From Torpedo marmorata (lineage: Eukaryota), in contig OZ360230.1 in the NCBI GenBank assembly GCA_977017645.1, positions 39,122,001 to 39,186,000 on the forward strand: DNA of 64,000 nt, in the 5' to 3' direction. The notes below the pieces were generated by a model. That model made no database searches, was not told where the DNA came from, and saw only the letters and a list, made by a program, of their open reading frames with translations. Shown piece by piece: positions 17,313 through 51,829 of the stretch (its first letter is position 1; every line of letters starts with the position of its first letter). The position numbers and the translations under genes are program-made.

Positions 17313-18544
17313 AATTTAGACTGTACTATCCTTGACTTACCAAATAAAATTGTTACAAAATGCATCGTCTATAAACACTGATCACTCCTTTTCTACCAAT
17401 TAGGGAAATAGTGGAATAATAAAATGCATTGCAGTCTGGAAGTCAATTTGTGGGATTAACCCTCATCCAGATTTGCAATGAGGATTACGAGGTAGGCTGC
17501 ATTTATTTGGCTCAATTTCCAACATTGTGTTTCTGATCAAGAAACTTGCTTCTGGAATCTAGTCAGAGATTAAACATAATTTTCCAACTACTTAAATGAT
17601 TTTATCAAAATAAAATCACATGCAGTCCACACTCAGACTTCCAGTACATAGTTCCGGTGGAAAATACCCTGATTGGCAATGATAAAATATGATTTCTAAT
17701 GTGAACAGCTCAAATTAAAAAAATCATCTGGCATTGTTGTTTACATTGTCAGGACTTTTCATAATAATCTGCACCCAGGGAATATTTTTTGAAGTGCAGT
17801 CATGATTATTATGAAGGCAAACTTCACACATTTACATTTGCCAAAGTCAGTTGAGTTTCCCATAATAATAAATGAAATGTTGGAAATATGCAACAGTGTT
17901 TGTGGGAAGAGAAGTGTGTCAATAGATCAGCTCAATGAGCTTTCTTCAGCAATCAATTAATTCCCAGTTCATATGATCTTGATGTTGTAGATTCTGAAAG
18001 ATATCTCACCTATAGGATCTTTATTTCCACTTTAATTTGTTCATGTGGGCTCAGTTTGATTGATTCAGCCCTTTCAGTCCATGGGCTGAAACAGTTGAAC
18101 CGAATGGAAACTTGAACTCAAAATCAAAGTTGACACTCTTGACACTGTATCCTTAAGGCTACACTATTTCCGAACATGAATCAATTTCAACAAAGTCAGA
18201 GAGTTGAGCAGCAGAGAAACAGGCTCTTTGGCCCATCACATCCCTGATGATTTTTTGTTCATCTGCTCTAGTCCCATTTGCCCACATTGGGATCATATAC
18301 TTCTACATGAAATCTACATGAAACGCTACCGTCAGAGAGCAGCAGCAATCATCAAGGATCCACACCACCCAGGACATGCTCCATTCTCACTGCTGCCATC
18401 AGGAAAGAGGTATAGGTTCCACAAGACTCATACCACCAGGTTCAGGAACAGTTGCTACCCCTCCACCATCAGACTCCTAAACAACAGACTCAATCAGAGA
18501 CTCATTTCAGGAGTCTTACTTTGCACATTATTAAATTAAATTTA

Positions 18545-18795
18545 AATAAAAAATTTAGACATACAGCACTGTAACAGGCCATTTCGGCCCTACGAGTTTG
18601 TGCCGCCCAATTTACACCCCATTAACCTACACCCCCGGTACATTTTGAAAGGTGGGAGGAAACCGGAGCCCCCGGAGAAAACCCACGCAGACTCGGGGAG
18701 AACGTACAAACTCCTTACAGACAGCGCGGGATTCGAAGCCAGGTCCGGTCCCGATCGCTGGCGCTATAAAGGCGTTATGCTAACCGCTACGCCAA
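18545..18795 (-). mobile_element. tRNA-derived V-SINE (HE1-like)
   Basis: Reverse complement of 27549-27780; A/B boxes and V-core GGAGTTTGTACGTTCTCCCC..GGGTTT. Confidence 0.85.
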
Positions 18796-18818
18796 TGGTT
18801 GAATATTTATATTCTGTA

Positions 18819-19554
18819 TTCAAGATTCAAGATTCAATTTATTGTCATAGTAATAAGACAGTGTCATATTCCATGAAATTTCTTTTTGCCTGCTGCAAGG
18901 CAGACAGATTCGCCACCGGCAGAAATTGCCTAAGAGCCTCTAACATTCCTCACAGTCAGAGAAAGAGAAGCAAAAGAGAGTCCTCCCAGAGTCACCGAGT
19001 GTCCATAGATTTGCCTCCAGCGCTTCCGCAGCCTCCGCAGCCACACAGAGTCCAGTCCAAACGATCGGCATCCCGAGCTCCAGATCCGAACCTCCAACAT
19101 GGTCAGGTCGCCCTCGGCACCCCCTCGCATCCCGGTTCTGATACCTGGTACTCCTCCAGCCAGTTCGAGCCAGCCTCCAGCAGTCTGCAGCCCGGCGTGA
19201 GTCCCCTGACAGCAGTCTCCAGCAGCCCACAGCCTCCACGGGTTCCTCGCCTCAAGTCGCCAGCAGCCCACTGCATGCACTGGTCCTTCAGCCTCAGAGC
19301 CCCTCACCGTCCCGTGGGTCGTCTCCTCCGCTTCTCCTTCTCAGACGGGGGTGGGGGGGGTGTGATCTTCCCGTCCTCTGGTGCCCTGCTCCAGTCCTCC
19401 GCTTCCCCGGAATCTGCAGCCCCTCGTGGCTGCTGCCGGTTAAAAGGCGCTGCCATCTTGGGTGCAGACCCCGTGGTCGCGGGATCTTAAATAAAACCAC
19501 TGTCAGCTCCTTTAACGGGCCCTTCAAAGCCCATGCGGAACCGACGGTAGTCGA
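18819..19554 (-). mobile_element. Non-autonomous GC-rich retro-element with (TTGAATC)n tail
   Basis: Second copy on the plus strand at ~41387-41740; ATGACAATAAA + tandem tail as in Rex-like elements; CAAGATGGC motif near 19455. Confidence 0.75.
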
Positions 19555-20518
19555 CTGCCGAGACCCAAGCGACTCCAGCCTGATCTCTTTGCCAAAAGGA
19601 CTTTTCTTAACTTCGTGTACGAACTGAGCGAGTTGGGAGTGTGTGCGACTGCAGTAATAGATCTTAGTCACATGTTCTTCCTCCAAATCATCCTCGTCAG
19701 ACAGGCCAGAATCCTTTGATTTCTTTTCATCATCACTCTCAAAATCGGCAAGAATGAAGCCCTCGTCCTCCTTATCCAGTACATCGGTGTTCAACGCCTG
19801 TTCAGGAGTCACCACTTCTTTACTCATCTGAATGAGGTGTTCTGTGTCATCGTCTTCTCTCTTGCGTTTCAAAGCATATTTAAGATGCACATTATTACGC
19901 ATTTGCTCCAATCGTTCCTCTCTTTCCTTTCTTCTTAATTCTTCATCTTTCAATTTATCAACCAGGTCACGCTCAGCCTTCTTCTGCACAAATTCAGTGA
20001 TCCAGTCCAATTCGCCCCCTGAGCTCTTGGATTTTGACTCCTTGGAGCCAACAGGGGAAATCTGCAGATCCTGGGACTACCATTGCTGTGGAAGTCGGTC
20101 TTCCAAAAGCTGGGCTGCTTCCGGTTTCTTTTTCTCTTCAAAGTCCCTGAGCCATGTGAGTGCTCTACAGATGAGACTGAGTGACTTCCCCGTCCCGGTG
20201 GGACTCCCAAATATCCCAATCTTTCCTTCATCAAGCACAATGTACAGCGCAGTCATAAATTCCTCCTGTATGGAGTAGGGTTTGAAGGGAAACGGGAATT
20301 TTGAGGTTGTTTCACCCTTCTCTTCAGCCATAACCTCTAAAACTACAGCGCACGCCCGGCACCCTGCCAATGAGCAGCGGGCCCGGCCTCGCCGACAGAT
20401 GCCGCCCAGTTACCACGAGCCGGGGTACGGTGCAATCCGGCTCCCGGCCTCTGCCGAGACCTCCTCACTGGTGCGGGCCTGGCTCGCTACCGTTCCCTAC
20501 TCTTTCCCAGGGCCGTCA
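19555..20518 (-). pseudogene. DDX11: Processed DDX11 (ChlR1 helicase) retrocopy: 5' UTR plus N-terminal coding part, disabled and 3'-truncated
   Basis: ATG at 20331: [32 protein letters not shown] (Q motif, Walker A), then [38 protein letters not shown]. No introns; stop at 20077-79 plus a frameshift; GC-rich leader to ~20518. Confidence 0.92.
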
Positions 20519-20652
20519 CATTTCTTTCTTTGTTTACATTTCTCTCTTTTGTATATGTATTTTTTCTTGAGTACAGTTTTTTTCATAACCGATAAGTAGA
20601 AATTTGACCTAGCCCGCAGGAAAGAGAATCTTAGTGTTGTATGTGATGTCAT

Positions 20653-21434
20653 CAGTGGCGGATTAATCATTAGGCTGAGTAGGCTTAAGCCTAGGGGCCC
20701 GAAAGGGATGGGGGGGCTCGAGAGCAAAAAAAAATGGTTCAATTGAGTGTACCCGTGAGTATTTTGGATGATATTTCAGTACTTTTGCATATATTGTTTT
20801 CATATCTGGAATATTACAAATATTACAAATACTATTTTGTTTTCTAAATTAGGCTCCAAACATATAAACATTTAGAAGTAATGCTTTTATGACTTTGTAC
20901 TGCAGCCGCGAGATTGTGTTTACCATGACGACGTTATTACGTCACGAGTTGGCGTTAACATGCGCGTATACTGGTTAAAGACAGGGAGCGAAGCCTGTTG
21001 GAACATGAATGCCAGTATTGTGAAATCTATAAAATGTAACGGTAAACAGAAACATTACTTTAGTAAGTCCATGTTTTACCGCTCCCTTACAAATGGTGAG
21101 AAAATCAGGAGAAGTTAGCTGTGCTATTCTCCAAGCACAGGTAAGGCGTTCTGTTTTAACTGCAAACTGTTTTCAAGTGAAGATCATGATTGATTACTCG
21201 ACAATACAAGTCAGAACGTGATTACATGAAAGCACTGCTGGAAAGAGTTGTTGCTACAATTAACTTTCTTGCTTATACATGTAGTACATTATACATAGTA
21301 CAGCGATATAAGTTATTTAACGTAACTTAACGTCACTTTATTCTATTCAATGAAGGGTGGGACAGGGGGGCAAGGTCATGGGGAGCCTTACTAAAGCTCA
21401 GCCTAGGGGCCTGGGTGGTAGTGAATCCGCACTG
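20653..21434 (+). mobile_element. hAT (Tip100/ZMYM1-like) deletion derivative
   Basis: TIR CAGTGGCGGATT / AATCCGCACTG; 8-bp TSD GATGTCAT (20645-52, 21435-42); TTF zinc-finger remnant NGEKIRRS*LCYSPSTGKAFCFNCKLF at ~21090-21170. Confidence 0.9.
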
Positions 21435-21535
21435 GATGTCATGTATGCACTCTGACAATAAATCTGAACTTTGAAATTTGAACTTTGAACTTCTCAGCCT
21501 TGCCTATTTAAGTGTCTGTTTATATGCCTCTAAAA

Positions 21536-49766: not shown

Positions 49767-50888
49767 TTAGAAACATTTTCTGTGCACGATGTTCGCCCCC
49801 ACTTCCTTGTACTCATGGGCAGTGACCCACATCTGCTGGAAAGCCGAGAGTGAGGAGAAGATTGAGCCTCCCATCCACACGGAGTGTTTCCTCTCGGTCG
49901 GAGCGCACACCTTGACAGGGGTACCGGTTGGGGCCATTTTAGTCATCTCCTTCAGCATCCTCTCGTCCATCCCCGGGAACAAGCTGGAACCTCCGGCCAG
50001 AATCACGTTGGCGTAGAAATCTCTCCTCAGGTCGATGTCACACTTCATGATGGTGTTGAAGCAGAGCTTATCGATGCCGGGAGCTTCGATGCCGATGTTG
50101 GCCGGGAGGAAGAGGGTCTCGGGGCAGCGGAACCTTTGGTTTTGGATCTTGATGATCTGACCATCCGGCAGCTTGTAATCTTTCTCCACGTCGCAAGCTT
50201 TCTGACATATCTCGGTTTGCAAGTCCAGGGCCACGTAGCACAGCCTTTCTTTGATGTCCCTCGCGATCTCCTTCTCCGCCGTGCTGACGAACGAGACCCC
50301 ACTCTCGGTCAGGATCCTAGCCAGGTACTCGGTGAGAACCCTTCCTCCCAGCTCCAGTCTCAGCACGGCGTGGGGCAGGCAGTAGCCCTCGAAGATGGGC
50401 ACGGTGTGGGTCACTCCGTCTCCGCTGTCCATCACGCACCCGGTGATCCTGCCTGAAGCATAAAGAGCCAGCACGGCTTGGATAGCCACGTACATGGCCG
50501 GGACATCGAACCCCTCGAAGAGGATCTGGCACATCTTCTCTCTGTTGGCCAGGGGATTCAGGGGAGCCTCGGTCAGCAGAGCCGGCCTCTCGTTCGGCTT
50601 GATTTTCAAATCGTGGTCGTACACGTACCTCCAGATCTTCTCCATGTCATCCCAAGAGGTGACTATACCGTGTTCCACTGGGTATTTGATGGACAACACC
50701 CCTCGCTTAACTTGGGCTTCCTCACCAATGTAGAAATCCTTCTGGCCGGCTCCTATGATGAGTGCTTTCTGCCGAGGCTTGCCGATCATGTTGTGGAAGA
50801 CCGAACGAGGTTCCATGTCTCCTGAGAAGCCGGCTTTGATCAGACCTGAGCCATTGTCAATAACCACGCCGGGCTGCAGATCTACCAT
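49767..50888 (-). CDS. Intronless divergent actin / actin-like protein (373 aa)
   Basis: Open ORF from ATG 50888: [62 protein letters not shown]-stop. Minus-strand AATAAA at 49721-26 and 49728-33. Confidence 0.95.
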
Positions 50889-51829
50889 CCTTGCCTGGGC
50901 CCGGGATGTAGCCAACGCACCTGCCACACACTAACAAAATTGCACCAAAGATATACTTTCCAACGCTGCTTCAATCGCAATGAACTGACTCCCCCCACCC
51001 AACCTCCCCCCCCCCCCCCCGGAGCCCTTGCTTTAAAATGTCTATGAGGTTTCTCCCGTCCAATTGTGACAGTTTGGAAGAATTATGAAGACATAATCAT
51101 TGGTGGTAACCGCTGCGTCAGCTAGCAACCTCTGGCCAACCACTCAGCTCGGTCACTTTAGTAGAAGTCTCTAGCCCCTTTTACTGGATAACAATGAAGC
51201 GCAGAGCTTCGGGTCGGGACACTCTATCGAGGATCCCGACTCGAAATATTTACTGATCCACGGTTCCTGTTTGACCTGCTGAGTTCCCCCGGCAGCTCAT
51301 TGTTTGCTCAAGATTCCAGCATCTTCAGCGTTCGTGTTTCTCTACAATGAAACACACACCTGAAGTGAGGTCAATCCAACCTCATGGCAGCTCTCCAATG
51401 ATAAATGTAAAAGGTGCACACATTTAATACCTTTTCAACCTTTGTGTCTTATCTGAAATCGAATACATGCCCAGATAAATTATTACAATGTTAATTAATA
51501 CTGCGTTCTCCAGACCAAATTAATTATTTTAGGTAATTAAGGTAAGATACAATTTTATATTTTGATGTTATTCTGCTATCATCACACAATCAATGAACCA
51601 AGTGGTTTTACCTCTTTACCTTGAGCATTTGGCTCAGAGAATTGTTTATTAGTGAGTTCACCCCTAACCTCTCCCAATCTGGATATACAACACACTAGGA
51701 CTCTAATTGTATCTGAGTAGAATTTGTACTGTTTCTTGGGTGGAGACAAATGAACAATTTCCTCTGTTCACATGACTTGCGAAAACAGTTAACTAGGAAA
51801 TTCCTGAAAACTCATTGTTTCAATGGCTT

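Follow-up and report, generated by a model that had tools for sequence, protein, structure and literature searches.

The 64,000-nucleotide stretch of Torpedo marmorata DNA analysed here (the window) contains a processed copy of DDX11 exons 1-7 that is joined, at an exon end, to a LINE-tailed repeat; the chimera is single-copy, broken and non-functional. It probably arose by splicing, whether in cis or in trans, between DDX11 and the repeat, followed by retrotransposition. Splicing into the repeat and subsequent mobilisation had been proposed in a preliminary description of this sequence, and the proposal has since gained an exon-end junction, an acceptor-like site in one subfamily of the repeat and a one-unit insertion, while the intronic source copy that it envisaged proved to be absent. 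Precedents for the mechanism exist among SVA and L1 elements; here the partner is not an L1 and the host is a ray, and the case consists of one dead copy.

A processed copy of DDX11 that ends at a splice donor

The DDX11 part occupies 20520-19555 on the minus strand and corresponds to exons 1-7 with six introns removed exactly, each of the 6/6 joins falling at a parental GT..AG intron. A search of the 6.2-Gb assembly returned eight matches: one is the retrocopy, and the other seven are separate exons of a single gene on C48; the number of DDX11 chimeras, which the preliminary description had left to be counted, is accordingly one. Exon 1 (20335..20520, minus) is non-coding and GC-rich, forms the 5' end of the insertion with a 2-nt microhomology to the host repeat, and is 88% identical, with indels, to C48:79278687-79278505, while exons 2-7 are 97-100% identical to the parent. 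Exon 2 (20191..20334; C48:79277888-79277745) carries the ATG at 20331, and alignment with the parent places exon 3 at 19948..20190, the spliced exons 4, 5 and 6 (87, 155 and 43 nt) at 19663..19947 and exon 7 at 19555..19662, all likewise on the minus strand. The 5' end of the retrocopy lies near the transcript start, as a contig of run X1 (which we guess to be RNA) reaches 20502. At 20436, within exon 1, a run X1 contig is 27 letters longer than the retrocopy, and indel differences in exon 1 also occur between the retrocopy and the DDX11 parent of the assembly.

The last DDX11 match stops at the parental exon-7 donor, CAG|gtaagt at C48:79260112, so that the DDX11 part terminates as the donor side of an exon-trapping 5' transduction does. 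The earlier statement that an intronless DDX11 5' part stops at an exon end at 19555 is thus correct. The parental exon 8 lies 19,057 bp downstream of this donor, behind an AAG acceptor, and starts AAC CTG (NLCV), in line with the boundary GSRQ|NLCV that the preliminary description gave for the human gene. No untemplated bases are present at the junction between DDX11 and the repeat.

The coding part comprises 777 nt (259 codons) and ends in phase 0. The fused frame continues for 86 further codons within the repeat to a stop at codon 346 (19296-19294), matching the in-frame run of about 86 codons into a 735-bp repeat that had been described. This extension is not made from this copy, however, because the frame is already broken by Q85* (CAG>TAG at codon 85, 20079-20077, in exon 3). 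Coding differences from the parent number 14/777 (1.8%), of which 11, including Q85*, change the amino acid and 3 are silent. Among proteins, Narcine bancroftii DDX11 comes closest (90%), which places the host among the batoids. At the 11 changed residues Narcine sides with the parent at 8, with the copy at 1 and with neither at 2; the retrocopy is decaying neutrally.

Insertion of the chimera as a single unit

The chimera interrupts an older host repeat on the plus strand, the left half of which (18310..18818) is a LINE 3' end with the C-terminus of ORF2, itself interrupted by a SINE, and the right half of which (20519..21491) carries a (TTTGAAC)n tail and is interrupted by a TIR element. In 15/19 sister copies, a match to 18310-18532 lies just upstream of a matching right half, and in sister copies 18310-18532 and 18799-18818 continue straight into the sequence from 20519 onward. 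The host repeat is therefore continuous across the 1.7-kb unit, which fills a single gap; the host repeat has lost ~14-18 bp there, the borders show 2-nt microhomologies, and a TSD is lacking. Further DDX11 sequence near the insertion was absent in the assembly search; neither it nor a TSD, both of which had been put forward as signs of independent insertions, flanks the repeat. The coding divergence of 1.8% is close to the 2.0% by which the repeat body differs from its subfamily majority, which fits one event.

Two further insertions are nested in the same short host repeat, making three with the chimera. The SINE at 18533-18798 (minus), which looks tRNA-headed and is presumably V-SINE/HE1-like, lies in the left half, 20 bp from the chimera. 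The TIR element at 20653-21434 measures 782 bp, ends in 11-bp terminal inverted repeats, is flanked by a target duplication of 8 bp (20645-20652 / 21435-21442), and is one that we take to be hAT-like.

A non-autonomous repeat with a LINE-like tail

The repeat part (19554-18819, 735 bp) consists of a body at 18844..19554 (minus), assigned by marker comparison to a subfamily that we term A (A7, G33, a 20-nt deletion at 245, T285 and T301), and a 3' tail at 18819..18843 (minus), AATAAA(TTGAATC)2TTGAA, with a 7-nt terminal unit, the last 2 nt of the tail being common to the host repeat. No poly(A) was seen at the repeat 3' end on inspection of the sequence; the microsatellite tail and the lack of a TSD at the site confirm the earlier remark that neither poly(A) nor TSD is visible. 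From its sequence, from the tails of the family and from the many copies truncated close to this end, the tail is likely to be the priming end for reverse transcription.

The repeat is abundant, with 8,911 first-look candidates genome-wide. Its full form, B, measures ~850 bp and has a fixed GC-rich 5' end; one junction pattern is found in 644 copies, and nearly all of the 100 of these 644 that were listed are B. The family 3' end comprises a hairpin-forming tail followed by (TTGAATC)n, and many copies are cut short close to it. An Rfam scan of the full-length copy L102 for a small-RNA head (tRNA, 5S, 7SL or snRNA) gave one chance-level hit (E 0.16), and a direct test of 24 full-length copies for TSDs gave nothing above mismatched pairs. 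Duplications of 8-21 bp, suggested in six copies by extrapolated BLAST ends, were dropped in the light of this direct test. The tail structure, the truncation near the tail and the lack of a head and of TSDs are features of a non-autonomous element mobilised by a LINE. The earlier label of a LINE-tailed repeat holds for the LINE-like tail and the marks of LINE mobilisation, but the repeat is not itself a LINE 3' end.

Aligned with the (TTTGAAC)n LINE 3' ends, the repeat tail scored 61 against a best of 46 in 500 shuffles, a difference that anchoring on the shared motif inflates; with three other tails it gave no alignment. An autonomous LINE sharing the exact tail was found neither among 100 of 228 matches that were listed nor in 30 LINE loci, and none sharing the 5' end of the repeat was found. 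Judging by ORF2 motifs, the partner LINE may be of the Rex1/Babar type; Pfam recognised only RVT_1 and PF09004 on such LINEs. The full-length B elements of the L102 type have a 5' end without a small-RNA head, which begins with what we presume to be a YY1-site-like motif. B words are very deep in run X1, although summed contig depth is a poor measure.

Microsatellite tails are tied to 'stringent' 3'-tail recognition in SINE/LINE pairs (PMC3747384), and bipartite non-autonomous LINEs are listed only for RTE, Ingi, Vingi and R2 (PMC5786205). The repeat resembles such pairs and bipartite LINEs in several respects: it codes for nothing, its 5' end is fixed, truncation from the 5' side is seen among its copies, and its structured LINE-like tail ends in a microsatellite. 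It differs from SINEs in lacking a small-RNA head in the scan of L102. Form B might itself be a bipartite non-autonomous LINE, belonging to a clade outside those listed in PMC5786205.

Subfamily A carries an acceptor-like site at the junction

The copies closest to the body in the window mostly lack the 5' end of B. In place of it, subfamily A carries a leader composed of a branch-point-like motif, a T-tract and AG, which meets the body at the exact base at which DDX11 does. The preliminary description had suggested looking for a pyrimidine tract-AG directly before TCGACT, and it is present in A, the subfamily of the window's body. The five-marker A haplotype is complete in the window's body, in 10/20 A-leader copies and in 0/38 B-leader copies; among further B-leader copies picked for G33, the deletion is present in 0/17, and the full haplotype thus occurs in 0/55 full-length-leader copies. 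In a tree of 87 copies, the body falls among the A copies with modest support, and it differs by 2.0% from the A majority.

The A leader corresponds to an internal part of a second repeat family, whose copies then continue with different sequence. Reading of its sequence shows decayed stretches resembling gag, integrase and env, together with a primer-binding-site-like motif, and on these grounds we call the family ERV-like. Leader length in A copies ranges from a few nt to ~900 nt. One of the longest is found in the segmental duplicates L083/L084 (C30:223.0 Mb and C30:222.34 Mb), where an A copy with ~900 nt of ERV-like leader forms a one-unit insertion in a LINE ORF2 end, which indicates that the RNA of the repeat carried long ERV-derived 5' sequence. 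Decayed ERV-like elements (L078-L082, L085, L086; e.g. C2:44441900-44451899) have the primer-binding-site-like motif with a short shared sequence upstream of it, and contain non-retroviral-looking filler; in L081 the motif is preceded by a long tandem array of a 44-bp unit. One internal 33-mer of the family gave 52 exact matches, part of which are A copies. The idea that A 5' ends cluster at the branch point, as a lariat stop, was discarded, for the ends spread from about -900 to +25.

We scored the sites with an acceptor matrix built from 19 DDX11 acceptors, which is small and home-made. On this matrix, 10/12 A leaders scored 6.0-7.6, equivalent to the 95-98th percentile of 1,069 AGs in intron 7, two mutated leaders scored ~2.7, and the four B sites scored between -2.2 and -3.5 (4/4). 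True DDX11 acceptors, left out in turn, scored 2.6-12.1, and the native exon-8 acceptor scored 4.7. An AG 35 nt upstream of the A junction scores higher (8.6), a second AG lies between the branch-like motif and the junction, and the junction site itself is AAG, with A at -3 in 1/19 DDX11 acceptors. Judged by its sequence, the T-tract-AG of the A leader is acceptor-like, and the element side of an exon-trapping 5' transduction is seen at this level, since the body starts right after the A-leader AG.

The parental locus and the search for a source copy

The preliminary description predicted a sense copy of the repeat in the next intron of the parent, and counted its absence among the results that would tell against its proposal. 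Intron 7 is the longest of 23 DDX11 introns in our approximate exon model, and in the one assembly available this 19-kb intron holds no A or other sense copy, no remnant and no assembly gap; a sense source copy downstream of the donor, as cis-trapping calls for, is absent from it. We do not regard this absence as fatal to splicing, as a lost allele or trans-splicing gives the same picture. Comparison of the repeat with a 200-kb parental region (C48:79,090,001-79,290,000) revealed antisense copies in introns 4 and 6 and sense B copies at 79,184,852 and 79,112,437; the sense copies, in the last intron and ~70 kb past DDX11, are B-type, 88% and 91% alike, without A markers. Neither the LTR end nor the internal part of the ERV-like element gave a match in 90 kb around intron 7. 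An intron-7 provirus lost by LTR recombination was thereby set aside as the source of A. A 950-bp repeat that is present at several other loci also occurs twice in intron 7, in the same direction and with 4 kb between the copies (C48:79241587-79242521 and 79245618-79246552).

A screen for other captures

Exon capture was screened through filtered junction patterns of 26 and 67 rows, the SAG-junction pattern being swamped by B copies. Counted by eye, the 67-row set comprised 19 B copies, 21 copies with a clear A leader and 11 with a T-tract only; a further 8, DDX11 among them, break off 0-5 nt from the AG, and the last 8 do so within the first 25 nt of the body. In the seven other near-AG rows no exon capture was proved: two have flanks that are unique genome-wide, four have repeats upstream, and the seventh was compared only with fetched loci, not genome-wide. 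Of 20 loci fetched (L161 being a neighbouring B copy), 15 have repeats upstream and five have none; genome-wide search of two of these five repeat-free flanks found them unique, the other three being L160, L167 and L169. The search for other mRNA fragments joined to the repeat at exon ends, called for in the preliminary description, yielded no second exon-end chimera among the rows checked.

In runs X1 and X2, a long spliced DDX11 contig departs from the window sequence at 19555 and continues. Contigs of four runs compared with the window, and of two with an A copy, included, among the listed matches, no piece spanning the DDX11-repeat junction or the A-leader junction; as contigs drop rare forms and the runs are not recorded as RNA, this result carries no weight for or against splicing.

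How DDX11 was joined to the repeat

With a splice donor on one side of the junction, a subfamily-specific acceptor-like site on the opposite side and nothing inserted between the two, splicing is its simplest explanation. The weight of this argument rests on the DDX11 side, because truncation near the A junction AG is common in the family and the coincidence on the repeat side is weak by itself. On the approximate exon model, a random break would fall at an exon end with a chance of 0.8% (23 ends in 2,868 nt).

It is an even call whether an A copy once lay in intron 7, was spliced to exon 7 and has since been lost. On this cis version, a 5'-shortened body of the ~850-bp form B would first have come to lie behind the ERV-like internal stretch, giving subfamily A in the structure that we observe. 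An A copy with the T-tract-AG would then have inserted in sense into DDX11 intron 7, upstream of the weak AAG acceptor, and splicing of exon 7 to it would have given an RNA running from the DDX11 start to the repeat tail, with the junction now present in the window. The protein of a tail-recognising LINE presumably copied this RNA into the older repeat on C42, leaving the small deletion and no TSD. The gene-trapping copy, absent from intron 7 today, may have been lost or may never have been fixed, and the retrocopy would have decayed neutrally. Because gene-trap insertions in essential genes should be eliminated, cis-splicing, too, predicts that no such copy remains in the intron.

Alternatively, and with less likelihood, the exon-7 donor, still unpaired because of a 19-kb intron with a weak acceptor at its far end, was joined to the acceptor on a separate A RNA, the ERV-derived leader acting as a donor-less intron, and the product was then retrotransposed; this route requires no copy within DDX11. 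The junction evidence is the same as for cis-splicing, to which are added the lack of an A copy in the DDX11 locus and A source RNAs whose leader extended for at least ~900 nt upstream of the AG (L083/L084). Against it, cis-splicing is by far the more efficient process, and trans-splicing predicts captures from other genes, which the rows checked did not contain. The data here do not separate the two versions, and we favour cis over trans on the general efficiency of cis-splicing. Among human mRNA/L1 chimeras, 15/17 have no intronic L1 and 6 end at donors, with long next introns (bioRxiv 2025.02.02.635956), which speaks for the trans version. The fuller proposition, that a non-L1 retroposon obtained a working acceptor from an ERV-like element and that its RNA was trans-spliced to DDX11 exons 1-7, is offered tentatively and we hold it to be somewhat doubtful.

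Template switching, in which A RNA was copied to the AG and synthesis then jumped to DDX11 RNA by AG microhomology, or onto the exposed 3' terminus of a splicing intermediate made up of exons 1-7, we regard as unlikely. AG is indeed common to both sides, 8/48 non-B rows (by eye count) break 0-5 nt from it, and a jump onto a splicing intermediate would also yield an exact exon end. Microhomology alone, however, would land on an exon end in about 5% of cases (12/238 AGs, on the approximate exon model), and the junction lacks untemplated bases. The CAG microhomology invoked earlier in favour of this route does not apply, since the 3-nt match exists only in form B, to which the window's body does not belong, and subfamily A shares only AG. 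It is highly improbable that a full-length DDX11 retrocopy came first and that a later truncated A insertion deleted exons 8 onward with the poly(A), for although insertions of this family leave no TSD and may remove bases of the target (L158), the deletion must have started exactly at the exon-7 end and stopped within ~18 bp of the host border without a trace of DDX11 or poly(A), and both halves are equally diverged.

Relation to known systems

The DDX11 chimera works like SVA exon trapping without being a member of that group: it resides in a ray genome, its element is an unrelated one of 850 bp and it has none of the hexamer/Alu-like/VNTR/SINE-R structure of hominoid SVAs. In human SVA_F1 (MAST2 exon 1) and chimpanzee pt_SVA_D6 (STK40 exon 1), a host exon is joined at its donor to an SVA acceptor (PMC6139936, PMC4859970), which for pt_SVA_D6/STK40 is proposed to stem from an earlier 5' transduction (PMC6139936). 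The cases are alike in that host 5' exons ending at a donor replace the 5' part of a non-autonomous retroposon mobilised in trans and, for pt_SVA_D6, in that the acceptor is proposed to have been brought by a prior acquisition, here the ERV-like leader with its acceptor-like site. The SVA cases are L1-mobilised, have poly(A) and TSD, contain one exon and expanded to 84-94 copies, whereas the DDX11 chimera exists once and includes seven exons (259 codons); its tail is a microsatellite, and it lacks a TSD.

A second parallel is provided by 17 human mRNA/L1 5' chimeras, e.g. MAP3K13, FHIT, PALLD, CREM and RAP1GDS1 (bioRxiv 10.1101/2025.02.02.635956), in which RAP1GDS1/L1PA2 is attributed to cis-splicing. 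There, too, first exons up to a donor before a long intron are joined to a sense retroelement that usually has no copy in the source intron. The partner in the human chimeras is autonomous, namely a near full-length L1 that has a TSD and poly(A), in contrast to the short non-coding element with a non-L1 tail found in the ray. The literature covered, which is incomplete, yielded no description of a case in cartilaginous fish in which an element other than L1 captured exons through splicing.

Like an ordinary L1 processed pseudogene, the chimera contains an intronless, dispersed and neutrally decaying copy of a housekeeping mRNA; unlike one, it retains its 5' end, and the 3' two-thirds, poly(A) and TSD are missing, with a microsatellite tail and a ~14-18 bp deletion at its target. 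Such retrocopies keep promoter-proximal exons and the N-terminus and lose the C-terminus. Being 5'-complete and 3'-truncated without poly(A) or TSD, they will be missed by pipelines that seek poly(A), TSDs and 3' ends.

To our knowledge, tail-recognising LINEs are thought to make few gene retrocopies. The DDX11 fossil points to one likely way for a host RNA to gain a LINE tail, namely splicing, and does so through an unusually legible chain that leads from a full-length element through an ERV-derived acceptor-like site and exon capture to unit insertion. If trans-splicing were the correct reading, tail-specific LINEs could copy genes in which they never sat, something thought impossible for them, and 5'-complete, 3'-truncated retrocopies would constitute a searchable class in sharks, rays and fishes.

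Elsewhere in the window, 49767-50930 (minus) holds an intact, single-exon, divergent actin-family frame that is open for 387 aa (Pfam Actin, E 2.8e-125) and is followed by AATAAA-like signals. These features suggest a genuine actin-like gene without introns, and not a recent retrocopy.
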